Below are positions 10,171-32,729 of a stretch of DNA of 64,000 bases, piece after piece. The stretch spans positions 23,649 to 87,648 of the forward strand of contig CAWJIA010000011.1 of the NCBI GenBank assembly GCA_963842805.1. Direction: 5' to 3'. The translations under genes were made by a program, and so were the position numbers. The stretch's first letter is position 1; each line of letters starts with the position of its first letter. Source of the DNA: an uncultured Chloroflexia bacterium (GTDB lineage Bacteria > Chloroflexota > Dehalococcoidia > GIF9 > UBA5629). Below the pieces are notes generated by a model. That model did not search any database and was not told where the DNA came from. It saw nothing but the letters and a program-made list of their open reading frames with translations.

Positions 10171-10193
10171 TTTATGATCCTTTTCCTTAGAAT

Positions 10194-11207: not shown

Positions 11208-11230
11208 GGTGAATAGTGGTAAAAAGTGGT
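11185..11230 (+). promoter_or_regulatory. GTGG(G/T) direct-repeat array (candidate MraZ-binding repeats)
   Basis: GTGGGG 11185, GTGT 11197, GTG 11209, GTGGT 11216, GTGGT 11226; the last two exactly 10 bp apart; overlaps the -10 region. Confidence 0.35.
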
Positions 11231-11248
11231 AAATAAGGGGAAAAGGAT

Positions 11249-11614: not shown

Positions 11615-11637
11615 CAACTCCGTCAGGTTAGTTAATT

Positions 11638-12066: not shown

Positions 12067-12998
12067 GCTTAACGTTAGAGAGAATGGTCCACACGCCGGT
12101 GCTGATCACAGAGGTCATTCAGGGGCTGGACGTGATGCCGGGGAAGCGATATGTCGACTGTACTTTAGGCGGTGGCGGCCATTCAACAGCCATACTGTCC
12201 AAATGCCAGCCCGGTGGTGAGTTGCTGGGTATAGACTCGGACCCTGAGGCCATTCGGATCGCACAACACAACCTCTATAACTATTTCGAAAGCACTATGA
12301 TCGTTAATGACAACTTCTATAACCTGGAGCAAATTTGCACGGAGACCCGTTTTATGCCGGTAGATGGTATTTTATTCGACCTGGGCCTTTCTTCCCTTCA
12401 GCTTTCCAGCGATGAACGTGGATTCAGTTTCCAGCGCAGCGGCCCGCTCGATATGAGGTTCAACCCCGATGAGCAGCTCACGGCTGCCGACATCGTCAAC
12501 AAAATGCCCGAGTCCAAGCTGGCCCAGCTCATACTTATCTACGGTGAGGAGTCTTACGCCAATCGGATAGCCAGCAATATCGTCAGGCACAGGCCGATAT
12601 CGGGTACGGCCGAACTGGCCGCCATCGTTTCCAGTTCAGTTGGCGACCGCTATACCAAGATTCATCCGGCTACCAGGACCTTTCAGGCCCTGCGCATAGC
12701 CGTCAACCGGGAACTGGATCACCTTACCTCCGCCCTCGACCAGAGCCTTAAATGCCTGGCCCCGGGGGGCAGGCTAGCGGTCATCAGCTACCATTCATTG
12801 GAAGACCGTATAGTCAAGAATTTCATGTTACGAGAAACCAGGTCCTGCATATGTCCCAGCAATATACCCGAATGCCGCTGCCATCACCAGCAGCAAATCA
12901 CCCTGATAAACAGGCATCCCATTACCCCGGCTGAAACCGAAATCGAAATAAACCCGCGCAGCAGGAGCGCCAAGCTCCGCATAGCGCAAAGATTATAA
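12063..12998 (+). CDS. rsmH: 16S rRNA (cytosine1402-N4)-methyltransferase
   Basis: HTPVLITEV...YVDCTLGGGGHS...FDLGLSS...GGRLAVISYHSLEDRIVK motifs; overlaps mraZ stop by 4 bp. Confidence 0.9.
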   Translation: MSLTLERMVHTPVLITEVIQGLDVMPGKRYVDCTLGGGGHSTAILSKCQPGGELLGIDSDPEAIRIAQHNLYNYFESTMIVNDNFYNLEQICTETRFMPVDGILFDLGLSSLQLSSDERGFSFQRSGPLDMRFNPDEQLTAADIVNKMPESKLAQLILIYGEESYANRIASNIVRHRPISGTAELAAIVSSSVGDRYTKIHPATRTFQALRIAVNRELDHLTSALDQSLKCLAPGGRLAVISYHSLEDRIVKNFMLRETRSCICPSNIPECRCHHQQQITLINRHPITPAETEIEINPRSRSAKLRIAQRL

Positions 12999-13222
12999 AA
13001 ATAGCAGGAGGCACGGAAAATGATACAAGCAAGCAGATTCGGCACCATTCTTAATAGGGATGGGAAACTCCTGGCAATATTCAGCGGCATGGTTTTTGAC
13101 GGCATCGTTTTCATCAGCCTGATAATCGCTATTGCCATACTTTACTTCTTATAGCGTGTATTAATTTACTCACCAGGAAATTTAGCAGTTAAGTATCACT
13201 AAATCGAAGGAGGCATGGATAA

Positions 13223-14449
13223 ATGACAAAAAGGTTAATCACCGGCATCGATGTAGGTACAACTAAGATTTGTACAATAGTTGCCACCCTTGATTCCGGC
13301 GGTGCCCTGCAGGTACTTGGGGTCGGCCAGGTACCTTCCCATGGTTTACACAAAGGCATGGTTGTCAACGTTGATGAAGCCAGAGATTCGGTTGCCGAAT
13401 CGGTCAAACGTGCTGAACAGGCCAGCGGTGTCAAGATCGAGTCAGCCTACATCGGCGTAACCGGCAGGCACATCAGTTCGGTCAATAGTCATGGCGTCGT
13501 GGCTATACCCCGAACCGACCGCCTTGTCAGGCAGGACGACCTGTCACGTGTTCTGTCATCTGCCAAGAACATCAACATCCCCGATGACAGAAAAATCCTT
13601 CACCAGATCCCCAGGGGTTACAGTCTGGACACCCAGGAAAAAATCAAGAACCCGGTCGGCATGCATGGGTTCAGGCTGGATGTCGAAACCCATATCATCA
13701 CCGCTTCCACTGCTTCTGTGCAGAACCTGGTTAAATGTGTTCGTAGCGTTGGTGTGGAAATCGACGACCTGGTGCTCGAACCACTGGCCAGCGGCGAGTC
13801 GGTACTTACGCCGGAAGAAAAAGAGATCGGCGTAATCATGGCAGATATCGGCGGAGGTACCACTGACATCGCCGTATTTAAGGACGGCAGTATTTATCAC
13901 ACCTCCATCATACCCGTGGCCGGCTACCAGTTCACAAGCGACCTGTCGATCGGTCTAGGTCTGCCCTTTGAAATCGCAGAAGCGATGAAGAAGAAGTACG
14001 GCAATGTTTACCCTGAGACGGGTCAGAAAGACGAGGGTTCCACCCTGACGGTGGAAGATGGACACAGCGTTTCCTACAAAGACCTTTGCAACATACTTCG
14101 GGACCGCATGGAAGAGCTGCTCAGGCTTATCTTACTGGAAATGCCGGATACCAGCTATGCATCGCTGGCCCCTGCCGGACTGGTAATGACCGGAGGTGGA
14201 TCCAAGATGAACGGCCTGGAAGCTCTCGCCCGCGGCACCATCCGCATCCCCACCAGGATAGGAGAACCAATGGGAGTCTATGGTATTACTGATGTGCTGC
14301 ATGACCCGGCCAACGCTACCGGCGTGGGTCTTCTCCTCTGGGCCATCAAGACCGGAGGAAAGCCCACATGGGAATCGAAGGGCGGCGACGCCAGAACCAG
14401 CCAGGTAAGCAACGTCATGGGCATGCTCAAGAAATTCTTTAGTGCCTGA
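13223..14449 (+). CDS. ftsA: Cell division protein FtsA
   Basis: 408 aa actin-fold protein: GIDVGTTKICTIVA, DIGGGTTDIAVF, MTGGGSKMNGL; immediately precedes ftsZ. Confidence 0.9.
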   Translation: MTKRLITGIDVGTTKICTIVATLDSGGALQVLGVGQVPSHGLHKGMVVNVDEARDSVAESVKRAEQASGVKIESAYIGVTGRHISSVNSHGVVAIPRTDRLVRQDDLSRVLSSAKNINIPDDRKILHQIPRGYSLDTQEKIKNPVGMHGFRLDVETHIITASTASVQNLVKCVRSVGVEIDDLVLEPLASGESVLTPEEKEIGVIMADIGGGTTDIAVFKDGSIYHTSIIPVAGYQFTSDLSIGLGLPFEIAEAMKKKYGNVYPETGQKDEGSTLTVEDGHSVSYKDLCNILRDRMEELLRLILLEMPDTSYASLAPAGLVMTGGGSKMNGLEALARGTIRIPTRIGEPMGVYGITDVLHDPANATGVGLLLWAIKTGGKPTWESKGGDARTSQVSNVMGMLKKFFSA

Positions 14450-14488
14450 TAATAAACATTTTTGAAATAGCAGGAGGTTTTAGAAAGT

Positions 14489-15601
14489 ATGTCGAAATCA
14501 ATGTTCTCAACAGCACCAGCTAAGATCAAAGCCATAGGCTGCGGCGGTGGCGGCTCAAATGCTATCACCCGCATGGTCCGCGAGGGGATCAAGGGCGTCG
14601 AATTCATCTGTATGAATACTGATGCGCAGGCATTAGCCCTGGCAGAGGTCCCGGTTCGCGTCCAACTCGGTGAAAAACTCACACGCGGGCTTGGCGCAGG
14701 CGGCGACCATAATGTCGGCAGGAAATCGGCCGAAGAAAGCCGTCAGGCGATCCAGGAAGTGGTATCCGGCGCTGACATGGTATTCATCACAGCAGGCATG
14801 GGTGGCGGCACCGGCACAGGCAGCATCCCTGTAGTGGCTGAAGTTGCCAGGTCATCCGGCGCTCTGACCATTGCCATCGTGACCAAACCGTTTGCCTTCG
14901 AAGGCGCAAGGCGCATGAAGGTAGCCGAAGAGGGTATCCTGCAGCTTTGCGACAAGGTAGACACCCTAGTCATCATCCCCAACGACCGCATAATCGAGCT
15001 CTGCGACAACAAAACCACAGTCGACAACGCTTTCCGGTTGGCTGATGATGTGTTGAAGCTGGGCGTGCAGGCTATTGCTGAAGTGGTAACCGTCCCTGGC
15101 CTTATCAACCTGGATTTCGCTGACATCAGGGCCATCATGAAGAACTCCGGACCGGCATGGATGTCTGTTGGCCACGGCAAGGGTTCCAACAGGGCGGTAG
15201 AGGCAGCCAAGGCGGCCCTGGCCAGCCCGATGCTCGACGTTTCTATCAGCGGCGCCAAAGGCGTACTATTCAACGTGACCGGCGGCAGCAGCCTGACGCT
15301 TTTCGAATGCAACGAGGCGGCTGACGTAATTGCCCAATCAGTCGATCCCGACGCCAACATCATATTCGGCGTGGTCTTCAATTCTCAGCTTGAGGATGAA
15401 GTCCAGATCACTATCATAGCTACCGGGTTCACCGCACAGTATGGTTCCGGGGTTCCAACCGAGGTGGAACTGCGCAGACTGTTGCGTGGAGCAACCGAAG
15501 ACAGCCTTGATGTTCCTTCATTCCTGAGAAGAGGATCGCGTTATCCCAATGCCCAATCGGGGGCACCCCGCCAGTCAGATTTTAGCAGAATGCCTCGCTA
15601 A
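14489..15601 (+). CDS. ftsZ: Cell division GTPase FtsZ
   Basis: [19 protein letters not shown] tubulin signature, ATGFT; 370 aa. Confidence 0.95.
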
Positions 15602-18921: not shown

Positions 18922-20343
18922 ATGGATGCCACTGAAAATCGCTGTTCTCTTGCATTCAAGCAGATAGCTAAAGTAGTCAACAGTGATTTACCTTTAAAGA
19001 AAATAATGGGACTGATTGCCGCCAGCGCAGCGCGAGCTTTGCAAGCTTCAGGCTGTGCTATTATGCTGCTCAACCCCCAGCGTGAATATCTGGATATCAT
19101 CGGCGCTTTCGGATTGAGTGACATCTACTTACGCAAAGGAGCCTTGAACGCTCGTAAAAGCTACCCTGAGATCCTGGACGGCAAGACTGTCGCTGTTGAA
19201 GATATTATCGTCGATAAAAGGACTCAGTTCCCCGAACAAGCAGCTAAGGAAAATCTGAAGTCGCTGCTGGGTGCGCCTATTTTGCAGAAAGAGGAGGTAA
19301 TAGGGGAGATCAGGATTTACACCCATGAAAAAAAGCATTTCAAACCTCATGAGAAAGACTTCATTGCCACCGTGGCTAATATCATTGCGGTGACAGTGGG
19401 AAAAAACGAATTGTACCAGTACTTAAATACACATCATGAGACCAATGTCACACAGCAGAAGAAACTCACCAGTTTCTCCCACCTTCCTTTGAAGCCGGTG
19501 CGTCCGACCAGTTTCAGCCACCCCAGTGAAGAAGAGTTTGCCAGGTTGCTGGATTTTTACCAGGTGGAATGGCTTTACGAGCCACGTTCATTTCCATTGT
19601 CCTGGGAAGCTAACAGAATCACCGAGATGTTCACGCCGGATTTCTATCTGCCTGAGATAGATTTATATATCGAATTGACAACTTCCAGACAAAGCCTTAT
19701 CACAGAGAAGAACCATAAGCTGCGCCAGCTCAAAGAACTGTATCCGGATGTCAACGTAAAACTGCTCAATAAAGCCGATTACCTAAAGCTTTTTGTAAAA
19801 TACGATTTTATACCCCTGGGCGAAAACAAGATGAACGGCGTGCAAAAATACCTGTTCAATAAAACGCAGCTCGACAGGCGCGTAAAGTCGCTGGCCAAGC
19901 AGATATCGAAAGATTATCATGGGAAGGACCTTATTCTTATTGGCATTCTTAAAGGGGTCATATGTTTTATGTCGGACCTGATGCAGAATATATCCATACC
20001 CCTTGAATGCGATTTTATGGCGATATCCACTCCCCAGGGCAAATCCGATTCGCTAATTAAAATAACTAAAGACCTGGATATTGATATCAGAGGCAAGCAC
20101 GTATTGATGGTGGAAGATATAATCGATACGGGAATGACCTTGAACTACGTATTAAACTACCTTGCGACACGCAAGCCGGCGAGTTTAAAAGTGTGCACAC
20201 TTTTAGATAAGAGGGTTAGGCGCTTAATCGATGTACATCTCGACTATATCGGATTCGAGATACCGGACGAGTTTGTCGTGGGCTACGGCCTGGATGTCAG
20301 GGGGAAATACCGCAACTTACCCTTCATAGCGATTTTGGAATAA
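18922..20343 (+). CDS. hpt: Three-module fusion: N-terminal GAF domain, central PD-(D/E)xK-like (DUF559/Vsr-like) module, C-terminal hypoxanthine phosphoribosyltransferase
   Basis: C-terminal 175 aa match HPRT (LILIGILKGVICFMSDL..., VLMVEDIIDTGMTL PRPP motif, VVGYGLDVRGKYRNLPFI); N-terminus GAF-like (KIMGLIAASAARALQASGCAIMLL...IGEIRIYTHE); middle region EEEFARLLDFYQVEWLYEP...PDFYLPEIDLYIELT. Confidence 0.7.
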   Translation: MDATENRCSLAFKQIAKVVNSDLPLKKIMGLIAASAARALQASGCAIMLLNPQREYLDIIGAFGLSDIYLRKGALNARKSYPEILDGKTVAVEDIIVDKRTQFPEQAAKENLKSLLGAPILQKEEVIGEIRIYTHEKKHFKPHEKDFIATVANIIAVTVGKNELYQYLNTHHETNVTQQKKLTSFSHLPLKPVRPTSFSHPSEEEFARLLDFYQVEWLYEPRSFPLSWEANRITEMFTPDFYLPEIDLYIELTTSRQSLITEKNHKLRQLKELYPDVNVKLLNKADYLKLFVKYDFIPLGENKMNGVQKYLFNKTQLDRRVKSLAKQISKDYHGKDLILIGILKGVICFMSDLMQNISIPLECDFMAISTPQGKSDSLIKITKDLDIDIRGKHVLMVEDIIDTGMTLNYVLNYLATRKPASLKVCTLLDKRVRRLIDVHLDYIGFEIPDEFVVGYGLDVRGKYRNLPFIAILE

Positions 20344-20551: not shown

Positions 20552-21337
20552 TCAGGCTCCGGGCACCAGTAAAGCTATAAACAAATATATTTCCCTGCCC
20601 CACACCAAAGTCACCAGCGTACCCAAAGCCAGGAATAATCCGAAGGAAACAGGCTCGGTAAGTTTCCTGAGTCTGAGTATTACCAGGACTATTGCGGTCA
20701 GGCCACCCGTCAAAACCGCCAGGTATATTGCTGCCATGACCAGGGGAAAACCCACCATAACGCCGATCAACCCTCCCATTACAACATCGCCCAATCCTAT
20801 GACTTCTTTTTTGAATAGCCTGGCTATGCACCAGATTAGAAAGAAAAATCCGAAGCCTGAGGCAAATCCGATAGCTGCATTGACTATATCGGGAGATAAG
20901 CCTGCGAGAGTTTTGACCAATGTAATTATCAGGGCAATCCCGATGGCTGGATAGATAATTATTCCCGGTAATAAACCGCTCTCCAGGTCGGTGATGGATA
21001 GTACTACCAGGATGGAGATGTAGAGTAGGACAACCGGCAACTGCCATTGCAGTCCCAATACGGCCCATGCCAGCACAAAGAGCAGCCCTGTCATCAGCTC
21101 TACCAGCATCGACCTTAATGCTATGCCGGCGCCGCAGTAACGGCACCTGCCCCTTAATACAACATAGCTGACAACAGGTATGAGATCTCTTGTTTCCAGT
21201 GGATGACCGCACTGGAAACAATGGGACGGGGGGGATATAATCGATTTATGCTGGGGCACCCGGTCCGCCACGACATTCAAAAAACTGCCGAAGCTAATGC
21301 CGATCAAGAAAAAAATAAGCGCTAAAACAATTTCCAA
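20552..21337 (-). CDS. pilD: Prepilin peptidase (A24 family)
   Basis: 261 aa polytopic membrane protein; N-terminal CxxC...CxxC zinc motif (CFQCGH...CRYCG) and conserved D-containing GLGDVVMGGLIG segment. Confidence 0.85.
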   Translation of the reverse strand: MEIVLALIFFLIGISFGSFLNVVADRVPQHKSIISPPSHCFQCGHPLETRDLIPVVSYVVLRGRCRYCGAGIALRSMLVELMTGLLFVLAWAVLGLQWQLPVVLLYISILVVLSITDLESGLLPGIIIYPAIGIALIITLVKTLAGLSPDIVNAAIGFASGFGFFFLIWCIARLFKKEVIGLGDVVMGGLIGVMVGFPLVMAAIYLAVLTGGLTAIVLVILRLRKLTEPVSFGLFLALGTLVTLVWGREIYLFIALLVPGA

Positions 21338-21342: not shown

Positions 21343-23814
21343 TTAATTACTTCTGTGTATTTTTGATTCTTTATCCATCAAGCCGCTGACGATTTCTTGT
21401 CCTTCGGTTTGAAATCCGCTTCCATTGTTCAACATAGCATCAACGACGCCTGCCAACAAGGTAATATCCTCGTCCGGTACAATTGCGGCCGATTTCTTAA
21501 AGGCCTGAACGGAGCCCTGGTAGTCCCCACCGTAGATATCGGAAATACCCAACAACATATATCCCTTCCAGTTGACTCCGTCACTATCAATGCGGGATTT
21601 TAAAGCACCGATTACCGAATCTATTTCACCAGCCCTGTAAGTGTTCAATACACTGCAAAAGTTCATATAGTAGGTTACATCTTTCACATCATCCTTAATA
21701 GGCGTGATAAGAAAATCAGCCGCCGCCCGGTTATCGCCTCTATATATTTGCAGCAGTCCCTGAAAAAATGAGGTCTGTATCCACAGCGGGTCGCTCTTTG
21801 TAGAGTCAGCTAATTTCTGTTCCGCAGCTTGATGATCTCCTTTGAAAATCAGCGCCAGCGCCCATTTGTTTAAAATCACCGGATTGGCCGGGAATATCCG
21901 GTCGGCTTTCTCATATAGGCCAAGGGCATCATTAAATTTGTCTTTATTACCGTTCAGAGCCCAGTAGACGTCCACATCAGCCAGCCTGTAATACCAGATA
22001 GCCATGGCCGGGTCCACGCGGATAGCCTCCTTGTAAGCTGACTCACTGAGGGAGAGCAGTTTTAACTGCTCTTGGGGGTCCTTGCTCTCTTGAGCCATCA
22101 TATAAGCCAGGTTGCCCAGGAAGTTCTGATAGTAAGATTGCTGGGGTTCAATCCTTACCGCCTCGCTATACATGGCCATAGCAGCATTCTTATCTTTGTT
22201 ATATAGGCTGAGGCCGCTCTCAACATAGGTATTAGCCAGTAACGGAGTGACGGTAAGGCCGGCTCCGATAATAATAAATATTGCAAATACTATCACTGCC
22301 ATGAATTTCCTTATCAGGCCGGGTCCTGTTCCCTCGGGTTTACACACTTCATTCAACATGCCGGCAGGCTGTTTGGGCAGGTTAATCTCTGCCGCGGAGT
22401 CGATTTTGATATTGGCCACGGTCAGCGCTAAAACCAGCCAGAACACCAGCTCCGGCGTGATAACCGACGGGTCGAAAAATACATGGGCACAGTATTGCAC
22501 AATGGCAGCAATGAAAGCCGACATAAGCAGAATTGAATCCCTTTCACCGCTTCGCAGCAGATATTTGAAGCCCATGTAGAAGAATATGCCTAGGATGACC
22601 AGGAAGGCCAGCAATCCCAGGATGCCCAGGGTCAGTGCCAGGTACAGATAATGGTTTTCGGGCTGCGAGATAACCAGCGACCCAAAGGTATATGTGCCTT
22701 TCCAGGCGGGAGGAAACCTGGTCTGTGACACGGCTATGAACGTTTCGGGCCCATATCCGATGAGGCGCCGTAAGCCGTGCAGATTATCCTGCAGATAGGG
22801 TATTTCAGGTGACTGAGTAATTACTTCGAGGGCGCACTGCCAGGTCTGTAAACGGATAGGCAACGTTCCCAGCCCAACCTGTTCGGCAACTGTGGCGCCG
22901 GGATTGCGGCTCTCGCCGGGTGCAACGCCGTTTTGTGGAACCAGCATCTGCCCCAGCAGTACGGCAGCAATAATGCCAACCAGTACGAGGGAAAAAATGC
23001 TGAGGGCCAGAGTTGCCCTCCTCTGCAGGAAAATCCCCGCTAACACAAAGAAAGCGAAAATCCCTATTATGAATAGCAGCAGGGTGATGGAATATTGCGC
23101 CAGTGCCAGGCAACACATCTGCAGGACAAATACCACCAGCAGGCCGATGAACCTGACCCACTTCCGGGTTCTGGACAACGGCGCATACCAGGTCAGTACG
23201 ATTAAAGCCAGCGTGACCGGCAAAATCATGGCTATGAAACCGCTTAACGATAGTGGGTTGCCGTCTATAGATACTACCCTGCCGCCCAATAAACCCCACG
23301 GCGCAAGGAAAAATTGCACTATGCCGATCAAACAAACTATGGCTGAAGATATCACCAGCGCATACAGGGCACGGTAAACCTGTTGGCGTGATCTTACTTT
23401 CTGTGACAGGATCAGGAAAAAGATGATCCAGGATATATTGGGGAGCAAGCCTACACTGCCCGCCAAATTCCCCCAGAGGCTCTTATAGGGCATGATGGAA
23501 CAGGCGGTCGATATCATCCATATCAAACCGAAGACCAGTACCGCAACCTGCAGCGGCGATGATTTTACTCTATCAGTTAAGTCCCTCCAACTAATTTCAT
23601 GCTTCCGGAGCAGCCACTGAGCCAGCGCCAGGCCCAGTAATGCGCACACCAGGAAAACCAGTGTAAGCGATTTAACAAAATAATAGGGGTCGAGGCAAAA
23701 AGGATCGTAAGCAAGGGGAACCAGGAAGATCGTCAGCAGCCAGATACATTCGATGGCTGTCTCCAGCCTGCCAAACAATTTGCTGCTTCGATTGCTGATC
23801 AATTCCATTAGCAT
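21343..23814 (-). CDS. Polytopic membrane protein with Wzy_C/O-antigen-ligase-like core and C-terminal TPR-repeat domain
   Basis: 823 aa; ~12 predicted TM helices in first ~470 aa, then soluble repeat domain with TPR-like helical periodicity (AYKEAIRVDPAMAIWYYRLA..., ALGLYEKADRIFPANP...); sits between prepilin peptidase and pilin. Confidence 0.5.
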   Translation of the reverse strand: MLMELISNRSSKLFGRLETAIECIWLLTIFLVPLAYDPFCLDPYYFVKSLTLVFLVCALLGLALAQWLLRKHEISWRDLTDRVKSSPLQVAVLVFGLIWMISTACSIMPYKSLWGNLAGSVGLLPNISWIIFFLILSQKVRSRQQVYRALYALVISSAIVCLIGIVQFFLAPWGLLGGRVVSIDGNPLSLSGFIAMILPVTLALIVLTWYAPLSRTRKWVRFIGLLVVFVLQMCCLALAQYSITLLLFIIGIFAFFVLAGIFLQRRATLALSIFSLVLVGIIAAVLLGQMLVPQNGVAPGESRNPGATVAEQVGLGTLPIRLQTWQCALEVITQSPEIPYLQDNLHGLRRLIGYGPETFIAVSQTRFPPAWKGTYTFGSLVISQPENHYLYLALTLGILGLLAFLVILGIFFYMGFKYLLRSGERDSILLMSAFIAAIVQYCAHVFFDPSVITPELVFWLVLALTVANIKIDSAAEINLPKQPAGMLNEVCKPEGTGPGLIRKFMAVIVFAIFIIIGAGLTVTPLLANTYVESGLSLYNKDKNAAMAMYSEAVRIEPQQSYYQNFLGNLAYMMAQESKDPQEQLKLLSLSESAYKEAIRVDPAMAIWYYRLADVDVYWALNGNKDKFNDALGLYEKADRIFPANPVILNKWALALIFKGDHQAAEQKLADSTKSDPLWIQTSFFQGLLQIYRGDNRAAADFLITPIKDDVKDVTYYMNFCSVLNTYRAGEIDSVIGALKSRIDSDGVNWKGYMLLGISDIYGGDYQGSVQAFKKSAAIVPDEDITLLAGVVDAMLNNGSGFQTEGQEIVSGLMDKESKIHRSN

Positions 23815-23879
23815 CTATAGCGGGACATGCGCTGTTTTTCACTTATTATACTATGCCGCGGGCAACTTTGGATTATACC

Positions 23880-23912
23880 AAAATGTGACCTTAGTACTAT
23901 GAAAATGTGACC
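23880..23912 (+). promoter_or_regulatory. Two direct repeats AAAATGTGACC spaced 22 bp, just upstream of pilin promoter
   Basis: exact 11-bp repeats at 23880-23890 and 23902-23912. Confidence 0.4.
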
Positions 23913-23921
23913 AATTGGCTA

Positions 23922-23949
23922 TTTACATTACGATCGGGGTCGGTATAAT
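23922..23949 (+). promoter_or_regulatory. Putative pilin promoter (TTTACA-16-TATAAT)
   Basis: TTTACA 23922-23927, TATAAT 23944-23949; strong RBS aaggagg before ATG 24039. Confidence 0.45.
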
Positions 23950-24038
23950 TGAATCGTAGGACAAAAATGGGATCAGAAGATTAACGTAGCCGGTCAGGTC
24001 GATCCGGCTTGTTGAGCAGCTAATTAAGGAGGTAACTT

Positions 24039-24344
24039 ATGAAATTATTTAAATCAGCACAAAAGGGTTTTACGCTAATCGAGTTGTTGGTGGTCATTTC
24101 CATCCTGGGTGTGCTCGCCGCTGTGGTAATACTGAACGTTACCAAGTACATGAGCGCTGGTAAGGAGCAGGCTGCGGCAACCGAGCTGGCCAATGTACAG
24201 ACGGCAGTATCAGCCTATATGTATGACAACACCGGCGCCGTCCCGTCCGGTCAGGCGGCACTATCCCCCTATTTCCTGGGCTCGCCGCATGGAACCTATT
24301 CCATTGACACGTACGGCAAGGTAACCCAGACATCCTACCCGTAA
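24039..24344 (+). CDS. pilA: Type IV major pilin (prepilin-type N-terminal cleavage/methylation domain)
   Basis: 101 aa; leader MKLFKSAQKG followed by FTLIELLVVISILGVLAAVV class III signal peptide. Confidence 0.85.
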   Translation: MKLFKSAQKGFTLIELLVVISILGVLAAVVILNVTKYMSAGKEQAAATELANVQTAVSAYMYDNTGAVPSGQAALSPYFLGSPHGTYSIDTYGKVTQTSYP

Positions 24345-24373: not shown

Positions 24374-24416
24374 AAAGAGAGCGTGGACTAAAATCCACGC
24401 TCTCTTTATGCTGTTT
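24374..24416. terminator. Bidirectional rho-independent terminator between pilin (+) and pilT (-)
   Basis: aaagagagcgtgga-ctaaaa-tccacgctctcttt 14-bp perfect stem, T-runs on both strands. Confidence 0.75.
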
Positions 24417-24423: not shown

Positions 24424-25494
24424 TCATGGAAACCCATTATCCGACCTCAATATTTTGTTTATATCGTCTGCATCCTGGCAGAAGGCATATACCGATTCCC
24501 GCGATATTACCTTTTTCCTGAACAGGTCTACCAGCGCGTCATCCAGCGTCTTCATCCCCAGATTGGCGCTGGTGCGAATGGTGTTGGGAATCAGGAAAGG
24601 TTTCCCCTCCCTGATAAGGTTTTTAACAGCCGCGGTGGCCAGCATGATTTCCACGGCAGCCACACGTCCTCCGCCTATACGCGGCACCAGCACCTGGCAG
24701 AAAACCGCCAGTAGCGTTGATGCCAGCCTGGCCTGGGCCATCTGCCTCTCATGGGGCGGGAACAGGTCCACAATCCTCTCAACGGATTGGGCTGCGCTGG
24801 GAGCATGCCCGGTGGATAGCACCAGATGGCCTGTTTCGGCTACGGTCAGGACGGCGGAGGCCGTCTCAAGGTCCCTCATTTCACCTACCAGTATCACATC
24901 CGGGTCCTGCCTCAGCACATACTTTAAAGCATTAACGAACGAATGTGTATCCTGATCGAGCTCCCTCTGTGAGAAGGCGCATTTAAGGCCGGGGTGAACG
25001 TATTCGATAGGGTCTTCGATGGTAACGACATACCTCTGCAGCGAGTGGTTAAGGTGATTGAACATAGCAGCAATGGTCGTGCTTTTACCTGAGCCGGTGG
25101 GGCCGGTAACCAGTATCAGGCCCCTGGGACGTATTATCAGCTCCTTGGCAATATCCGGCAGCCCGATCTCTTCTACCGTCGGTATATGGTCCGACAAAAT
25201 ACGTATGGCCAAACTGATCGAGCCCTGCTGCCAGCAGGCATTACACCGGCCGCGCCCACCACCGGGAAGCTCATGCGCAAAATCAACTTCCAGCTCGCTC
25301 TTTAACAAATCCCTCAAATGCGTATTCGCGACCTGGTGAAAGAGGCGCTCTATTTCCTCGCCCGCCATGATCCCGAACTCGGGGAACGGCTTTAACTCGC
25401 CGTCAATCCTCAATATGGGAGGTACGCCTGCTACCAGATGGAGGTCGGAGCCTTTTTTATCTTGTGCCAGCTTTATCAAATCCTGGATATTCAT
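24424..25494 (-). CDS. pilT: Type IV pilus retraction ATPase PilT
   Basis: 356 aa; Walker A GPTGSGKST, ...GHLVLST, PilT-type AIRNLIRE-like motif (AVKNLIREGK). Confidence 0.9.
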   Translation of the reverse strand: MNIQDLIKLAQDKKGSDLHLVAGVPPILRIDGELKPFPEFGIMAGEEIERLFHQVANTHLRDLLKSELEVDFAHELPGGGRGRCNACWQQGSISLAIRILSDHIPTVEEIGLPDIAKELIIRPRGLILVTGPTGSGKSTTIAAMFNHLNHSLQRYVVTIEDPIEYVHPGLKCAFSQRELDQDTHSFVNALKYVLRQDPDVILVGEMRDLETASAVLTVAETGHLVLSTGHAPSAAQSVERIVDLFPPHERQMAQARLASTLLAVFCQVLVPRIGGGRVAAVEIMLATAAVKNLIREGKPFLIPNTIRTSANLGMKTLDDALVDLFRKKVISRESVYAFCQDADDINKILRSDNGFP

Positions 25495-25528
25495 CTATGG
25501 CCTTTGGATCTCCTTGAGGTTCTGCTTT

Positions 25529-26938
25529 TTACCTGTCCGCTGTCAGGGTAATCTCAAATTGCGTTTGATTGTATGATGTGCTGGTTATGGAAGTCACATC
25601 TACCTTCTTATAATTTCCATTCTGCTTGAGGTTGCGGGCATAATCGAGCACCATATCCCCGTTGGGAGCTGTGCCCTGGACCACTATGCTTTGGCCATCA
25701 TCGTGGATGGACGTCAAATACATAAATCCAGGCAGGGGAGCCATTAAATCGCCCCAGTCCCTGTTGATAGAAGCTCTCTCCTGCGCCAGATAATCCAGCG
25801 GAGCTTTTAAGGCATTAAGTGTTTGCTGGTACTGGTCGCGTTGTTGGGCGGCTTTATCTCCCTGCTCTTTGACATTTTTCTGCGTATCCACAACCTGCTT
25901 TGTTTTCTCATTGACCAGCATTTGCAGGCTATTATTCTGTGCGGCTGTCGAGCTATAAAGGACATAGGTGGCAATAAATATTACTGAAGCAAGGGCCAGG
26001 GCGAAAAGTGGAAGCGTGCTGGTTCTGGCCGCAGGTTTAGCAGCGGCCAGCCGGGGCATGACATCGATATTGACCCTCATCAGCCTGGCCGCGGCGCCGG
26101 TACCCCTCAGGGCCATACCGGTATTGGCGGCAAACCTGCCCTCATCGGCCCCGGCGGGATAAACCAGCTTAGAAGGCAGAGGTCTTATACTGTACGGAAT
26201 AACCTGCGCCAGGCCCTCGCTCAGATCGCCGCTCAGGAAGCACCTTGCATTCTTGTCCAATTGCCTGTCGGCATGGCTGGAATTATAAAAATTGACCGTC
26301 CTGATAATTTCATCGTTGATGATGGATATTTTATCGGGCTGGCTCATGTCTGTTTGAGCAAAAGTCAGGCTGCGCATCAGCTCGGGTATCCCCGAGTCCA
26401 GCACGCTGATATCAAAGCCGTTTACCTGGACATTGACCACCACGGCGGTCTGTTCATCCACCACCCGGTCTACGGCCAGCGGCTTAAGCTCCAGCGATTT
26501 TAGCCTCAGGCCGCACAGCTTCAGGGTATCTATCACCGAGTCGACATTATCACGGGGCAAACCCAGCAAGCACAGTGCCGATTCAACACCCGATATTTTG
26601 ATGTCCTGCCAGGATGTATAAAGGGTTTCCAGCGGGACGGGACTGACGCGTTCCATCTCTTTCCGGGCGGCCTCCGCCAGCAAACCCCTTTCGAGCCTGG
26701 GCACATATACCACCCGGTAAATTGAGTGCACGCCGCTCACGCAGGCTATGGCTTCCCTCTCGCGGATATTGTTGGTGGTAAGCAGGTTAATGATTTGCTG
26801 ACTTACGGAATCTTTATCAATAACCACTCCATTCTGCACCCAACCGGCCGTCAAATTCCCTTCAACGGCGGAAATCACCCGTTTGCCGCTGACCCGGGTT
26901 ATCCTTACCGAATCATCTTCAATATTAAGCGTTAACAT
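25529..26938 (-). CDS. Fused PilM (actin-like) - PilN (TM + coiled coil) pilus alignment protein
   Basis: 469 aa; N-terminal ~300 aa PilM-like; then TM segment LFALALASVIFIATYVLY and Gln-rich coiled coil plus C-terminal domain typical of PilN. Confidence 0.7.
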   Translation of the reverse strand: MLTLNIEDDSVRITRVSGKRVISAVEGNLTAGWVQNGVVIDKDSVSQQIINLLTTNNIREREAIACVSGVHSIYRVVYVPRLERGLLAEAARKEMERVSPVPLETLYTSWQDIKISGVESALCLLGLPRDNVDSVIDTLKLCGLRLKSLELKPLAVDRVVDEQTAVVVNVQVNGFDISVLDSGIPELMRSLTFAQTDMSQPDKISIINDEIIRTVNFYNSSHADRQLDKNARCFLSGDLSEGLAQVIPYSIRPLPSKLVYPAGADEGRFAANTGMALRGTGAAARLMRVNIDVMPRLAAAKPAARTSTLPLFALALASVIFIATYVLYSSTAAQNNSLQMLVNEKTKQVVDTQKNVKEQGDKAAQQRDQYQQTLNALKAPLDYLAQERASINRDWGDLMAPLPGFMYLTSIHDDGQSIVVQGTAPNGDMVLDYARNLKQNGNYKKVDVTSITSTSYNQTQFEITLTADR

Positions 26939-26953
26939 TTTTTCATGACGTTC

Positions 26954-27553
26954 TCATTGATTAGTACAAAACACCGTCAATGTAATAGTGGCCTGGTCCG
27001 GAAGCCCCTGGGCCTGAGCAGGCTGCATGGTTATATCCGTAGCTACGCTGGACGGCAAAGTTTTATCCAGGTCCCTAATGAAATTCAGAAAATTCTGGAT
27101 CCAGCCATTCATGCCCAGTGCATAAATAGTCACTGGATAGTCTGTTCCCTGTATTTGAGACGTGCCAGATGAGATGGACATGGAAGTGATGGTAATATCA
27201 TATTGAAATGCCAGGTTGATCAATTTCTGCGCTGTCTCGACGCTGTCGCAGGCATTCCCGTAAATTGCTCTCTGAGCGGCGATGTCGGAGCTTAATTTGC
27301 TTATTTCACTGTCCACGGAGGTCTGCGCAGTTAATTGCCCTTGGAGATTATTGTACTGCGTGCCCAATTCCGCCAGCCTGTTATTTAAGGCGCTCTGCCT
27401 GTAGATCTCGTCCGAGTAGGACATCGCGATGGGCACGATAGCCATCAGAAACAGGGCGCCTACTATGATCAGCCAGACGGACGTGCTCAGGCGGGGTAGC
27501 CTTTGCAACAGGCTACTCGTGGCACTTTTGGAATAATTAGCGGGTGGACGCAA
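26954..27553 (-). CDS. PilO-like pilus assembly protein (N-terminal TM, coiled coil, C-terminal domain)
   Basis: 199 aa; TM VWLIIVGALFLMAIVPIAM followed by coiled-coil RLAELGTQYNNLQGQL. Confidence 0.6.
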   Translation of the reverse strand: MRPPANYSKSATSSLLQRLPRLSTSVWLIIVGALFLMAIVPIAMSYSDEIYRQSALNNRLAELGTQYNNLQGQLTAQTSVDSEISKLSSDIAAQRAIYGNACDSVETAQKLINLAFQYDITITSMSISSGTSQIQGTDYPVTIYALGMNGWIQNFLNFIRDLDKTLPSSVATDITMQPAQAQGLPDQATITLTVFCTNQ

Positions 27554-27638
27554 TTCTATTTATTCCTACCAGCCTATTGCGCATATTATACATTAAATAA
27601 GTCTGTTTTAACCCGTCTCTCTATTTTAACAGAGTATC

Positions 27639-28889
27639 TCACTGATAATTGTAGCCAATTAAAAGGGGCGTACCACCCAGGCCTGCGCCGGGTATCTGGG
27701 TCTCCGAGTGGATGCCGCTCATGTACTTGATAATTGCGCTTCCTTGCATCGTGATGCTCTTGGCTATAACAGATCCGTACACGTAAGCGGAACCGCTCAG
27801 AGTGGCATCTGCATTGGGCGCATATATAACGGCTGCTACTTGTCCGCTGCCGCCGATAGTAACCGTAGTGCCCTGACAGATTATAAAGGGTATATTCCCT
27901 GCCACAAGGTTTGCGTTAGCGCTTCCGTCTAACGTTAGATTTCCTCCACATACAATTGTATACGCCCCATCCACTACGCCGCTATTTGCAATATGCAGGT
28001 TGCCCGTGCAATACACTGTGCCATTCAAATGGACTGTGACGCTGCCCCCTATGGTCAGGTCGCCGGTTATATAGGCCGGGCCCGGGAATGTATAAGTCCC
28101 ATAGCCCGGCACAGGGCTACTGCCGTAATGGGTGCCGGCGCTGGCCTGGTTGATGAAAGTCTGGACGTTAACAGTATATGAGACGGGGGCAGCGCTGGTC
28201 ACCGTGCTGCCGTCACACGTGCCGGTATTGCAGTTGCTGATCGTTGCCGTCCCGGTTGCCGATGCCACACCCTGCGCAGCAGTGCCTGAACCGCAGGTAT
28301 TGCAGGCAGAACAGCATGTGCCTCCTACCGTTGCACTTGGCGTTAAAGTTATATTCCCGTTGGCATAAATATTGCCATAGTTGCCGGCCTGCCTACCATC
28401 GGATAGTATATGGGCTCCGCCTGTCATCGAAAAATTACCATTGAGGCTGGCTGCTGCCTGGTTGAATATATTGTTGCCGGGCGCCGGAACCCGGATTAGC
28501 GCAATTACCTTTGCCCGGGTTTTACCGGCCGAGGCCGCGCTGGATGTAATCGTATAATTATCGTATGAGTTATCGGGAGCCCGGCTATCCGCCGCCGCTA
28601 CCGTCACCGTCATCCCGTTTATTGGATTAGGAATAGTAGGAAGATAAGTAGAAGTAATATTGTTGGGGTTTGTATTCCAGTACCAGTACAGTGCCTGGAT
28701 GCCCGAATCGGCCGCATAATAAGCCGCCATGTCCTGCTGAGCATTGGAGTTAATGGTCAGGAGTGAATACATGAACCCCAGCCCGGGCACAACTATTAAA
28801 GTTGCCGCAACAAGAAGTATCAAAGCCAGGGGCAATATCATGCCGCGCTCTTTACGGCCGATTTTTCTCAGAAACTTCTTAAATCTCAC
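27639..28889 (-). CDS. PilX_N-domain large minor pilin-like protein, Gly/Thr/Asn/Ser-rich beta-repeat body
   Basis: N-terminal hydrophobic anchor GMILPLALILLVAATLIV and AAYYAADSGIQ motif typical of PilX N-terminal domain; 416 aa. Confidence 0.6.
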   Translation of the reverse strand: MRFKKFLRKIGRKERGMILPLALILLVAATLIVVPGLGFMYSLLTINSNAQQDMAAYYAADSGIQALYWYWNTNPNNITSTYLPTIPNPINGMTVTVAAADSRAPDNSYDNYTITSSAASAGKTRAKVIALIRVPAPGNNIFNQAAASLNGNFSMTGGAHILSDGRQAGNYGNIYANGNITLTPSATVGGTCCSACNTCGSGTAAQGVASATGTATISNCNTGTCDGSTVTSAAPVSYTVNVQTFINQASAGTHYGSSPVPGYGTYTFPGPAYITGDLTIGGSVTVHLNGTVYCTGNLHIANSGVVDGAYTIVCGGNLTLDGSANANLVAGNIPFIICQGTTVTIGGSGQVAAVIYAPNADATLSGSAYVYGSVIAKSITMQGSAIIKYMSGIHSETQIPGAGLGGTPLLIGYNYQ

Positions 28890-29422
28890 AATGCACCCAA
28901 CTGCGGCGGCATCCTCTGGTAAAACTTGAATGTTATATTGTCGCTGGCATATTTATTTGTACCCAAACTTTTAGCCGCCCTTATAGTTAGTAAATATGTG
29001 TTATTCTCTGTAATCGTTGGATTGACCTTAATAAAAGAGGTACTGGCCGGGTCTATATATTGCGCGATGTATTTCCCGTTGCGCAGCAAGTTCCCATTGG
29101 TTATTCTATAGGTGACGGTGCTGCGAGTGAATGCGCTCCCGCTCCATTGATAGCAGGTCATCGAGCACAGGTTGCCTGGAGAGACGGCCGTTATATTGTC
29201 GGCGCTGGCAACGTCTTTAGCTATCGATGCTCCGGCCTGGTGGACCTGAGCCAGCACTATAGCCTGCGCCATACCGGAGCTCGTCACCCTGGTCGCCTCG
29301 CTGAATGTCAGGGCCATAACCGCGCTCGCCCCACCGATGATTGACAGGATAATAATAAGTTCAAGCAGTGTAAAACCCCTGCTCCACTTTGCAGCCGCAT
29401 TGCCCTTTTTAAAAATATTCAT
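28886..29422 (-). CDS. Minor pilin (prepilin-type N-terminal methylation domain)
   Basis: leader ...KWSRG then FTLLELIIILSIIGGASAV; ATGA overlap with upstream gene. Confidence 0.75.
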   Translation of the reverse strand: MNIFKKGNAAAKWSRGFTLLELIIILSIIGGASAVMALTFSEATRVTSSGMAQAIVLAQVHQAGASIAKDVASADNITAVSPGNLCSMTCYQWSGSAFTRSTVTYRITNGNLLRNGKYIAQYIDPASTSFIKVNPTITENNTYLLTIRAAKSLGTNKYASDNITFKFYQRMPPQLGAL

Positions 29423-29432
29423 ATTATGTAAT

Positions 29433-29903
29433 CTAATAGCCGATAATATATTCGGTCATTCCCGCCTCTTGCTTGTTATTATATTTAACGGTAACTGTCA
29501 CCTGCTGGATTTTGGGGTCGCTGTTATACGGCGATGCGCCTAGCGAAGCACCCTGCACGGTAACTGTATAGCCTGTATAACCCGGGGGAAGGCTGTTGTG
29601 AGAAGAATCCCAGGCCGGGTATCCGGGAGATCCACCCGGTATTGTATATGACCAGGGTGGCTTCCCAGCGGGTGTTCCAGCTTTGAGGATATTGGTCCAG
29701 TTGTCGCCGACAGACCTTACGTACTCCAACTCATAACGCGCCAGGCCCTCGGCTGTCATATTGGTGCGCGCAATATTATTGCCCTGGATGGTGGTATATA
29801 TACCGGCCACCAGGGTGACTCCTACAAAGCCCAGAATGGCGACGGCAACCAGGGCTTCCGCCAGGCTGACACCTCGCTCACCCCCAGCGCTTAACCACCG
29901 CAC
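29433..29903 (-). CDS. Minor pilin / pseudopilin (PilV-like)
   Basis: leader MRWLSAGGERG then VSLAEALVAVAILGFVGV. Confidence 0.65.
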   Translation of the reverse strand: MRWLSAGGERGVSLAEALVAVAILGFVGVTLVAGIYTTIQGNNIARTNMTAEGLARYELEYVRSVGDNWTNILKAGTPAGKPPWSYTIPGGSPGYPAWDSSHNSLPPGYTGYTVTVQGASLGASPYNSDPKIQQVTVTVKYNNKQEAGMTEYIIGY

Positions 29904-29907
29904 GCCT

Positions 29908-31122
29908 TTACCCTCCCCCCCCGACGACGCTGACGGCGGAGTAGATAGGCACGAAAATAGATAATGCCAGGAAGCCGACCACCAGGCCGATGGCTACGGT
30001 CATGGCAGGCTCGATCAAGCCCAGCAGCGTCTGCAGCTTGTCCGCCGCCTCAATTTCGAAGCTGTCCGAGACTACCGTCAAGGTGCTGTCGAGGTTACCC
30101 GTCTCCTCTCCCACCCTGGTCATCTCCACCATAAGCGGCAGGAAAACGTGCTTGCCCCTCATGGCCCCGGCCAGCGCCTCGCCCTTGATAATATCCTGCT
30201 CCACATCCCTGAGGGCTTGGGCGATAACCCTGTTGCCTGCCGAATCAGCTGTCAGAGTTAATATATCGGGCAGGGGCAGGCCTGACCTGAATAAGAGGGT
30301 AATGCTGCGACAGATGCGTGAAAGGGTGTTGAGCAGTATAAGCCTCCCCAACACCGGCAATCTCAATAAAAGGGCATCCTTCCGATAGGCGCCCTCAGGC
30401 GTGCGGGTGTATAGATAGCCGGCTACCCCCACTATGGCAATAGCCAACAATATGTATATGCCGTAGCTGGTGGCGAATGTAATCCCCCATATCAGTATCT
30501 GCGTGATGAGCGGCAGGTTGCCGCCCAGGTTTTTAAATACGGCCAGGATCGGCGGCAAAATAAAGGTGACCATAAGTATGGCCACCAGAATGGCCAGGAC
30601 CAGCACCACAGCGGGATAAGTTGTCGCCTGCTTGACCTTCCTCATAGCCGCCGTGGCCTGCTCGGAATAGCCGGCAAGGTTCCTCAATACGCTCTCCAAT
30701 TGGCCGGTCTGTTCGCCGACTGCAATAATCTTACAGAACATCTTGTTAAATGCCCCGGGGTGTTTTTCCAGGGCAATGGATAGCGCCAACCCTGCGCGCA
30801 GGTCGGTCACCACCTTGCCCAGCATGGCAGAAAAATTCTTATTGGCCGACTGTGCGCGCAGCAGGTCCAGGCTTTGTACGATCCCCACCCCTGACTCGAG
30901 AAGCAGGGCCAGCTGCCTGGAAAACATCACTACATCTTCCGGCTTGATTTTCGGCTGCATAAAAGAAGGCATGCCCGTGATGAAAGGGGTTATGGGCTTT
31001 ACATTAAGTATCTGGTACCCGTCGCGTAAAAGCGCGTCACCGGCGCTCTTCTCGCTGTCGGCAGTTATCCTGCCTTTTACCACCCGGCGGTCTACCGTAT
31101 ATCCGACATATTCGTATTCCAT
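29908..31122 (-). CDS. pilC: Type IV pilus inner-membrane platform protein PilC (GspF family)
   Basis: 404 aa with duplicated GspF-type domains and three TM segments. Confidence 0.85.
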   Translation of the reverse strand: MEYEYVGYTVDRRVVKGRITADSEKSAGDALLRDGYQILNVKPITPFITGMPSFMQPKIKPEDVVMFSRQLALLLESGVGIVQSLDLLRAQSANKNFSAMLGKVVTDLRAGLALSIALEKHPGAFNKMFCKIIAVGEQTGQLESVLRNLAGYSEQATAAMRKVKQATTYPAVVLVLAILVAILMVTFILPPILAVFKNLGGNLPLITQILIWGITFATSYGIYILLAIAIVGVAGYLYTRTPEGAYRKDALLLRLPVLGRLILLNTLSRICRSITLLFRSGLPLPDILTLTADSAGNRVIAQALRDVEQDIIKGEALAGAMRGKHVFLPLMVEMTRVGEETGNLDSTLTVVSDSFEIEAADKLQTLLGLIEPAMTVAIGLVVGFLALSIFVPIYSAVSVVGGGG

Positions 31123-31172
31123 ATTCCTTCTATCCGGTACTATCTGAGCAAGATGGTACCTGCATGTGCTTA

Positions 31173-32729
31173 TTAAGTGATGGAAAAGGCGTTCCTGAGG
31201 ACTTCATAGGGGGTGGTGATCCCGGCTTTGGCCTTCATCATGCCGTCTTTGGCAATAGTAACCAGGCCCTGGCTCAAGGCGGTGGCATGGATGTCCTGGT
31301 TGCCGGCGCCCGCCACGATCATGCGGCGCAGCTCATCGGTCATGGTCAATATCTCAAATATGGCGGTGCGACCCAGGTAGCCGGAATATACGCATTCCTT
31401 GCAGCCTGCGCCGTACATAAACTCCGTCCTGCTCTCGCCCATCTCCTTCTCATAAGCTATTTGCTCAACCAGCGGCGCCGTCACCTTGCGGGCGCAGTGA
31501 GGGCAGACGCGCCTTACCATCCTCTGGGCCACTATGCCTACCAATGCGGAGCTTATGAGGAACGGCTCAACGCCCAGGTCGATCAAACGGAAGAGCACCC
31601 CCACCGTCTCATTGGCGTGCACGGATGAAAGGACCAGATGCCCGGTAAGCGCCGACTGCACGGCGATCTGCGCAGTCTCGCTATCACGTATCTCACCCAC
31701 CAGGATCACATCCGGGTCCAGCCTGACGATGGAGCGCAGCCCGCCGGCAAAGGTCAGGCCCGCCTTGATATTTACCTGTATCTGATTAATATTCTCAAAG
31801 CGGTATTCGACGGGATCTTCGATGGTTATGATGTTTTTGCCCACGCTGTCCAGGGAGTTGACGGCTGCATACAGCGTTGTGGTCTTGCCGGCGCCCGTCG
31901 GGCCGCTGATCAGGACCATGCCGTAGGGCATCATCAACATCTTTTCATATTGCTCCTGGCTCTCCCTGAGAAAGCCGATCTGGGGAAGGGCCAGCGCCGC
32001 CATGGACTTATCCAGCAGCCGCAGCACACCCATCTCACCGTTGACGGTGTTGATGGTGGCCACACGCACATCGATCCGCTTGCCGGCCGCCTCGAAAGAG
32101 AACTGGCCGTCCTGCGGCCGGCGGTGGTCGGCAATATTCATGTCCGAAAGGATCTTGATGCGCGAAATCAAAGCGGTATGCACGCTCAGCGGCAGTGAGG
32201 CGACCTCATGTAAAATGCCGTCGATCCTGTAACGCACGCGCACCCTTATCTCATCCGGCTCGATATGTATGTCGGAGGCGCGTGACTTAACACCTTCCTC
32301 CAGCAGCCTGTCCAGCTGGCGCGCTATAGGTGTATCGGAAGCCTCATCCGCCATCGTGACATCGACTGACGCCTGGGCTGCGGAAGTACGATCACTACCC
32401 TTTCCTCCCTCTTTCAGCGTCCTGTAATTGTAATCAATGGCTTCCTTGATATCGGCCTCTGTGGCAGGTATCGGCTCAATCCTTTTTTTGGTATAGATCG
32501 ACAGGTTCTCTATGGTGAGTATGTCACTGGGATTGGCCATGTAGACGCGGCACGTGTTGCCGTCGAGGGATTGAGGCAGCACATTATATTTCCTGGCGAT
32601 ATCCTCGGGCACTAGTTGCAGCGCCTCCGGCATGGGCCCGTCCGACTGGACATTCAACCTAGCAATACCAGGCTTGGCCGACCCGCTGGCATTGGCCCGG
32701 CCCTTTGTTTCTTTAGAATCAGATGCCAT
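31173..32729 (-). CDS. pilB: Type IV pilus assembly ATPase PilB (GspE family)
   Basis: 518 aa; Walker A GPTGAGKTTT, tetracysteine motif CPHC...CKEC, GspE N-terminal domain. Confidence 0.9.
   Translation of the reverse strand: MASDSKETKGRANASGSAKPGIARLNVQSDGPMPEALQLVPEDIARKYNVLPQSLDGNTCRVYMANPSDILTIENLSIYTKKRIEPIPATEADIKEAIDYNYRTLKEGGKGSDRTSAAQASVDVTMADEASDTPIARQLDRLLEEGVKSRASDIHIEPDEIRVRVRYRIDGILHEVASLPLSVHTALISRIKILSDMNIADHRRPQDGQFSFEAAGKRIDVRVATINTVNGEMGVLRLLDKSMAALALPQIGFLRESQEQYEKMLMMPYGMVLISGPTGAGKTTTLYAAVNSLDSVGKNIITIEDPVEYRFENINQIQVNIKAGLTFAGGLRSIVRLDPDVILVGEIRDSETAQIAVQSALTGHLVLSSVHANETVGVLFRLIDLGVEPFLISSALVGIVAQRMVRRVCPHCARKVTAPLVEQIAYEKEMGESRTEFMYGAGCKECVYSGYLGRTAIFEILTMTDELRRMIVAGAGNQDIHATALSQGLVTIAKDGMMKAKAGITTPYEVLRNAFSIT

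Follow-up and report, generated by a model that had tools for sequence, protein, structure and literature searches.

The DNA analysed here, called the window, is a stretch of 64,000 nucleotides from an uncultured Dehalococcoidia bacterium (contig CAWJIA010000011.1, positions 23,649 to 87,648). Its subject gene, at 21343..23814 on the minus strand, encodes a membrane protein of 823 residues with a Wzy_C core and a tetratricopeptide repeat (TPR) domain, as defined from the open reading frame (ORF) list, Pfam and an AlphaFold 2 (AF2) model. On the same strand, 5 nt beyond the stop codon, lies pilD (20552..21337), which encodes a prepilin peptidase of 261 residues (Pfam A24_N_bact, 2.7e-32; Peptidase_A24, 1.3e-10). 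The two genes are probably co-transcribed as an operon. On the other side, at 24039..24344 of the plus strand, is the gene for a type IV prepilin of 101 residues, 91 in the mature form (N_methyl, 4.7e-10), the candidate substrate. The pilin gene stands head-to-head with the gene for the 823-residue protein, their starts 224 bp apart on opposite strands, and therefore the two do not form one operon. The pilin gene is preceded by a sigma-70-like promoter, TTTACA-16-TATAAT with 11 of 12 matches (23922..23949, plus), and followed by an intrinsic terminator with a 14-bp stem and a T run (24374..24407, plus). This promoter and terminator of its own fit a strongly expressed, monocistronic major pilin.

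The first-pass annotation, made from the letters of the sequence, correctly placed the large gene between those of the prepilin peptidase and the pilin. The range it gave, 21343-24344, takes in two genes on opposite strands and the 224-bp intergenic region. It put the gene immediately upstream of the pilin, but the gene diverges from that of the pilin and is co-oriented with pilD, which it almost abuts. The remaining type IV pilus cluster, assigned by Pfam scans, occupies 24424..32729 on the minus strand. In window order, which is the reverse of transcription, it encodes PilT, a PilM-N fusion, a 199-residue ORF, a DUF7305 protein, two prepilin-like minor pilins, PilC and PilB.

The core of the protein had been described as O-antigen-ligase-like, with a Wzy_C profile search suggested as a check. 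For the protein alone, that search stays below threshold. The Wzy_C profile (PF04932) scores 21.3 bits with the full protein (E 2.5e-4) and 22.6 bits with the N-terminal domain (E 9.9e-5) against the Pfam gathering score of 31.7 bits, although the match still spans profile positions 3-149 of 149. The relatives give the clear result. The N-terminal domains of 10 out of 11 aligned relatives match PF04932, with a best E of 2.9e-21, and a precomputed match is present on most of 105 database homologs. An alignment of 140 sequences displays many near-invariant residues common to the family and to wider Wzy_C relatives. Because the relatives match Wzy_C and these residues are shared, the core is a true Wzy_C/WaaL-fold (GT-C_B) domain.

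The AF2 model of the full-length protein has a predicted local distance difference test score (pLDDT) of 83 and a predicted template modelling score (pTM) of 0.83. Residues 1-481 were remodelled alone for the fold search, the full-length search being swamped by TPR matches. The top structural matches of this N-terminal model are WaaL and SEDS proteins, and the best is the WaaL of Cupriavidus metallidurans (7TPG/7TPJ). The earlier assignment of an O-antigen-ligase-like core is thus borne out by the matches of the relatives and by the structure. Sequence searches of the PDB return only TPR proteins with the full protein and the full-length profile, and nothing with the N-terminal profile; NCBIfam gives only TPR-level matches on the protein.

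The WaaL-like domain comprises 12 transmembrane (TM) helices in residues 1-477 (22384..23814, minus), with a large outer loop at residues 288-391, modelled by AF2 as about 100 residues between helices 9 and 10. A 13th TM helix follows at residues 500-537 (22204..22317, minus) in the AF2 model, with a hydropathy peak at 504-522. It is preceded by a linker, residues 478-496, of low AF2 confidence, and the preceding loop carries four Lys and Arg residues. The TPR domain occupies residues 538-823 (21346..22203, minus) and forms about seven helical hairpins, as identified by Pfam, PDB profile and Foldseek searches. Pfam TPR matches cover approximately residues 590-816, AF2 builds 14 helices at 542-822, and the PDB profile and Foldseek searches retrieve consensus TPR proteins and the TPR domains of OGT and SPINDLY. 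Loops rich in Lys and Arg alternate as expected for a protein with its N-terminus inside. Because the Lys/Arg-rich linker ahead of helix 13 falls on the inside, the TPR domain comes to lie on the outside; the model and the charge distribution therefore predict an extracytoplasmic TPR domain, in agreement with the outward-facing domain proposed earlier.

The conserved polar motifs are all located on the outer face: DGNPLSLS at 184-191, AQYS at 239-242, R321/W325, GYGPET at 353-358, PENHY at 385-389, and H444. The outer-face residues R148, R179, R321/W325, R349, GYGPET and N387 are nearly invariant and are common to hundreds of Wzy_C relatives.

The linkage with the pilin gene was examined in 43 loci of GTDB species representatives, of which the 35 with at least 600 bp upstream of the gene were used for the count. 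A divergent pilin gene of 100-130 codons lies 170-540 bp away in 28 of these 35 Dehalococcoidia loci; among the other seven, one has a pilin remnant and one has a pilin downstream. The pilin gene stays adjacent at protein identities of 35-81% and despite rearranged surroundings. In the complete genome CP070642.1, at 36% identity, the pairing persists with pilD and pilT no longer adjacent. The co-occurrence across related genomes that the first-pass annotation had proposed as a check is therefore found. Its remark that the association is unusual for Dehalococcoidia is reversed, since the arrangement is the norm in this clade. The gene pilD follows at a distance of about +6 to +110 nt in almost every locus of the subclade to which the window belongs, the one with Glu at position 386 discussed below; in one locus a tandem paralog intervenes. 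Close family members (34-80% identity, about 820 residues) are confined to metagenome-assembled genomes of Dehalococcoidia/Chloroflexota and form about 30 clusters at 50% identity (E<=1e-30).

Pilin-specific O-oligosaccharyltransferases (O-OTases) are typically encoded beside their substrate, and such linkage served to predict, and then to confirm, proteobacterial pilin O-OTases (PMC3643930; PMC12645811). The relatives without a pilin gene are found in a different setting. The pilin-less paralog L035 adjoins a GT4 glycosyltransferase gene and one for a DUF2206 membrane protein, and the pilin-less paralog L045 is divergent from a Wzx-type flippase gene. Outgroups at 23-25% identity are located inside clusters with GT4/GT2 enzymes, a Wzx flippase and a Glycos_transf_4 initiating transferase. 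These glycan contexts of paralogs and outgroups indicate that the wider family acts on lipid-linked glycans that have been flipped across the membrane; the pilin-linked clade looks like a specialised branch of it.

Three residues are important in E. coli WaaL, R215, R288 and H338, which correspond to R224, R298 and H349 of PglL (PMC3643930). An hhalign alignment of the family profile with E. coli K-12 WaaL, itself marginal (E 0.031) and used for the residue register only, places R215 at S242, R288 at R321, and H338-N339 at E386-N387. The register is borne out by a cross-check against the alignment of 140 sequences and by 133 wider relatives, which have Arg at position 242 in 124, Arg at position 321 in 130 and His at position 386 in 129. 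S242 (23089..23091, minus) belongs to an AQYS[ILV]T motif and replaces the canonical Arg; Ser is found at this position throughout the pilin-linked family. R321 (22852..22854, minus) is invariant. E386 stands in a Q384-P-E386-N387-H388 motif (22651..22665, minus), whose codons were checked, at the place where WaaL, PglL and PglS have their catalytic His.

The replacement at position 386 is accompanied by others. Among close relatives this position is Glu in 56, which form the subclade of the window, and His in 24, which comprise the sister subclade together with outgroups. Two further positions, and no others, change along with it: 384, Gln versus Arg, and 444, His versus Asp. Over 82 sequences the 386/444 pair is E/H in 55, E/Y in 5 and H/D in 18, and never E/D or H/H; in the wider relatives it is H/E in 93 of 133. 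Residue 386 is at the outer start of helix 10, and H444 (22483..22485, minus) is at the outer end of helix 11, 58 residues further on, a topology in which the two are probably neighbours. In PglS, His324 is the proposed catalytic base and the H324A protein is inactive; Glu379, 55 residues after His324 and equivalent to PglL E404, is a possible acid/base partner (PMC12800693). From the sequence pattern, we read the 823-residue protein as retaining the His/carboxylate pair in swapped form, E386 with H444.

The candidate substrate has a prepilin leader and N-terminus of textbook form, MKLFKSAQKG followed by FTLIELLVV. The loop after its N-terminal helix varies in length between species and has a high content of Ala, Ser, Thr and Pro (AVPSGQAA here, FPATTATPSDAGI elsewhere). 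An alignment of relatives shows a conserved C-terminal stretch, GTYxxDxxGKVTQ[TS]xYP. The pilin of the window ends in GKVTQTSYP and the last residue of its relatives is P, W, N, Q or K, with a Ser/Thr conserved 2-5 residues from the end. Either the variable loop or the C-terminal stretch could be the glycan site.

On balance, and with slightly more confidence than doubt, we take the protein to be a pilin-dedicated O-OTase-like enzyme of the WaaL/Wzy_C (GT-C_B) fold. In the mechanism that we propose, a polyprenyl-phosphate-linked glycan would be assembled on the cytoplasmic side and then flipped across the membrane to its outer face. The 12-TM domain would bind it there, with R148, R179, R321, R349, GYGPET and N387 holding the phosphate(s). 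The E386/H444 pair would activate a Ser/Thr hydroxyl of the membrane-anchored pilin, to which the glycan would be transferred. Helix 13 would put the TPR domain outside, where it may recognise the pilin head or dock on the pilus machine, as proposed for TfpW. Co-transcription with pilD would couple two steps of pilin maturation.

Several observations weigh against a pilin O-OTase. Neither PglL_A (PF15864) nor Wzy_C_2 appears in the Pfam scan of the protein at E<=0.01, and therefore membership of the PglL/PglS class fails. Only one residue of the canonical WaaL/PglL triad, R321, is kept, and position 391 is Tyr across the pilin-linked family, with Asp in 96 of 133 wider relatives. The proximity of residues 386 and 444 is derived from the topology, and the swap of the pair may be one event on one branch, so that its correlation would not amount to many independent tests. 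The pilin ends in Pro and lacks the terminal Ser/Thr acceptor in which the TfpO/TfpM substrates end (PMC12645811). No gene for an initiating transferase or a flippase is present in the 64-kb window, whose sole glycan-pathway candidates are two GT4 genes at 39550-42148, 15 kb away. Five related loci (L035, L037, L045, L049 and L050) are without any pilin, as is the close P0009 locus (L003/L004), found by metagenome look-up. What the analysis shows is the fold, the homology, the topology argument, the gene linkage and the residue pattern; the glycan on the pilin, its donor, its acceptor site and the catalysis are inferred. The likeness to PglL/PilO/TfpO-type enzymes drawn by the first-pass annotation is accordingly partial. 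The Wzy_C core and the conserved pilin linkage speak for it; the missing PglL_A and Wzy_C_2 domains, the replacement of two of the three canonical residues, and the pilin without a Ser/Thr end speak against it.

A non-catalytic or mainly structural part of the monoderm pilus machine is another reading. A degenerate WaaL-like membrane anchor could present the TPR domain outside as a docking or assembly platform, comparable to PilF/PilW/TadD, that helps the pilus to cross the envelope or S-layer. The canonical Arg and His are lost and the TPR domain is large; the gene keeps a constant position within the pilus cluster, as part of an operon with pilD, and no glycan genes are nearby; and Pfam scans of the cluster reveal neither a secretin nor any other outer component. 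We regard this structural role as improbable all the same, for the near-invariant outer-face motifs are those of hundreds of Wzy_C relatives, and the sister clade keeps the canonical His in the same gene linkage. Moreover, the His/acid pair is swapped and not lost, which argues that the site is under selection for chemistry and is not decaying. An enzyme with another acceptor is likewise unlikely. In this case the protein would be a general envelope glycan ligase or polymerase, WaaL/Wzy-like or similar to the S-layer O-OTase WsfB, and its adjacency to the pilin gene would be inherited synteny. The outgroups and the pilin-less paralogs in Wzx/glycosyltransferase clusters fit such an enzyme. So do the wide occurrence of Wzy_C with a long C-terminal extension (747 cluster representatives at E<=1e-10, many of 700-1200 residues) and the fact that PglL-type enzymes are general O-OTases (PMC12645811). 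Synteny of this kind does not readily explain why the pilin adjacency survives such divergence and rearrangement, and the pilin-linked copies have no accompanying glycan genes. In addition, the pilin-less L037 and the pilin-linked L043 occur in one metagenome-assembled genome, which fits a division of labour, although the neighbours of L037 are not shown to be glycan genes.

A pilus-like device for polysaccharide secretion, comparable to the hormogonium Hps/pseudopilin system, would have the Wzy_C-TPR protein polymerise or hand over an exported polymer. TPR domains are a hallmark of polysaccharide export scaffolds (cited in PMC2943079), the pilin weakly matches NCBIfam pseudopilin families, among them HpsC and GspG, and the Wzy_C family includes polymerases. 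The PilT retraction ATPase and the strongly expressed short major pilin argue instead for a retractile pilus, the conserved R321 and the HN-type motif are ligase/O-OTase features (PMC3643930), and the cluster is without polysaccharide genes, so that we give secretion very little credence. A Wzy polymerase as such is disfavoured by the ligase-type Arg, the HN-type motif and the pilus context. WaaL proper is rejected for its gene context, as the gene is in a pilus cluster and the 64-kb window contains no lipopolysaccharide genes. A GT-C_A core of the ArnT/PMT/TMTC type is also rejected: the structural-match lists contain no ArnT, Emb or PMT structure, and the only classical GT-C protein in them is AglB at Foldseek rank 11 (E 0.53, not significant); the DDX motif was not searched for.

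A bolder version of the pilin O-OTase reading can be put forward, which we hold as doubtful. The pilin-linked Dehalococcoidia proteins might be a fifth, TPR-fused class of O-OTase that serves a monoderm type IV pilus with a rebuilt active site, in which the Arg at 242 is lost, Asp391 is changed to Tyr, Glu386/His444 are swapped and Arg384 is changed to Gln. The loss of two to three positive charges at the phosphate site could mean a different donor, such as a polyprenyl-monophosphate-sugar or a non-glycan head group, or a metal-assisted mechanism, in place of the pyrophosphate chemistry of WaaL/PglL. Under the plainer reading the class of enzyme is known, and the novelty lies in the lineage, in the fusion of a TPR domain to a WaaL core, in the joint operon with pilD and in the exchange within the catalytic pair.

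Apart from WaaL, the nearest known systems were compared by description. TfpO/PilO of Pseudomonas aeruginosa 1244 and Acinetobacter, and TfpM, likewise have a WaaL-like/Wzy_C core with an extracytoplasmic active site and no PglL_A or Wzy_C_2, and their genes likewise lie beside that of the pilin substrate (PMC12645811, PMC3643930). However, tfpO and tfpM are downstream of pilA and co-oriented with it, whereas the gene for the 823-residue protein is divergent and in an operon with pilD. The two enzymes modify a C-terminal Ser/Thr, which this pilin does not offer. The cited papers do not describe a TPR domain for TfpO/TfpM, which are proteobacterial and have the canonical His, in contrast to Glu386 and His444 here.

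PglL of Neisseria and PglS of Acinetobacter baylyi, again compared by description, belong to the same superfamily. PglS also has a plan of 13 TM helices and an outward C-terminal domain (PMC12800693), and in PglS/PglL as in the 823-residue protein the proposed catalytic residues are a His and a carboxylate about 55-58 residues apart, in swapped order in the latter. The pglL genes are beside pilin genes in 21 of 31 cases (PMC3643930). Unlike PglL/PglS, the present protein is without PglL_A and Wzy_C_2, has Ser for the Arg equivalent to R224/R215, and carries as its C-terminal domain a TPR solenoid of 285 residues.

TfpW, the pilin arabinosyltransferase of Pseudomonas aeruginosa Pa5196/PA7, is likewise polytopic, with a large periplasmic C-terminal TPR domain and a gene beside pilA, and it uses a lipid-linked donor on the pilin. 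Its core is ArnT-like, a fold different from the WaaL-like core of the 823-residue protein (bioRxiv 10.1101/2020.04.19.049825). WsfB of Paenibacillus alvei and WsaB of Geobacillus stearothermophilus, as described, likewise belong to monoderm hosts and have Wzy_C, and a C-terminal TPR is reported for WsfB (PMC2943079). Their acceptor is the S-layer protein and their genes are in the S-layer glycan cluster (PMC2943079), whereas the present gene is in a pilus cluster. WaaL (7TPG/7TPJ; E. coli K-12) shares the 12-TM arrangement, the large outer loop, the R288 equivalent and the Asn of the HN motif. It differs in its acceptor, lipid A-core, and in having neither the 13th helix nor the TPR domain, and the equivalents of its R215 and H338 are replaced in the 823-residue protein.

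The literature search for pilin glycosylation or O-OTases in Dehalococcoidia or Chloroflexi found nothing, and the four O-OTase classes of a 2025 review are all exemplified by proteobacterial enzymes (PMC12645811). If true, the pilin O-OTase reading extends pilin O-glycosylation by WaaL-type enzymes to the Chloroflexota (Dehalococcoidia), an uncultivated clade. Sister clades that have His/Asp or Glu/His at the same two positions are a natural experiment on the O-OTase catalytic pair, and comparing them could shed light on the mechanism and help to engineer enzymes for bioconjugate vaccines. The architecture also suggests how a ligase-type core can gain its substrate specificity from a TPR domain. 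Until a glycan is demonstrated, the practical consequences are modest.

The related loci display several variations of the arrangement. Two tandem pilin genes are upstream of the enzyme gene in eight loci (L011, L019, L022, L024, L025, L027, L029 and L038). In L006, at 8001-13033, two tandem Wzy_C-TPR genes lie between the pilin gene and pilD. L008, whose protein is 81% identical, retains only the last 28 pilin codons (5688-5771), between pilT and the enzyme gene, owing either to deletion or to an artefact of assembly. The Wzy_C-TPR gene and pilD of the His-type sister clade are separated by an inserted ORF of about 290-300 residues (L031 8763-9662; L032, L033, L042 and L044). The L031 copy, the only one scanned, is of the ThiF family (E1-like, 3.1e-56). 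The window has a ThiF gene elsewhere, at 46503-47537.

Within and next to the pilus cluster, further genes are of interest. The DUF7305 protein (27639-28889, minus; 416 residues) comes after the minor pilins, carries weak bactofilin-like repeats beside a putative ice-binding-like adhesive domain, and may belong to the pilus tip or act as an adhesin. A gene at 32757-34118 (minus), immediately upstream of pilB and in the same orientation, combines a TackOD1 output domain (3.5e-38) and an Mrr-type restriction endonuclease domain in one protein. An ORF of 1137 residues at 34422-37835 (plus) adjoins the cluster, has only a faint match to Sortilin/Vps10-type repeats, and is followed by a class I methyltransferase gene. 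At the other end, a GAF-phosphoribosyltransferase fusion gene (18922-20343, plus) is convergent with pilD; it and the ribonucleotide reductase gene beyond it are kept in most related loci.

Two other regions of the window are worth recording. At 12063-15601 (plus), ftsA and ftsZ come straight after mraW, without intervening mur, ftsW or ftsI genes; the same order is found in related loci and would fit a wall-less cell of the Dehalococcoidia type. At 52811-64000 (plus), four PFL-like glycyl-radical enzyme paralogs are arranged in tandem (54042-56459, 57390-59888, 59920-62361, and 62393 to the window end). They are accompanied by a single radical-SAM activase gene (56483-57406) and preceded by the gene for a protein of two fused TetR units (52811-54004).

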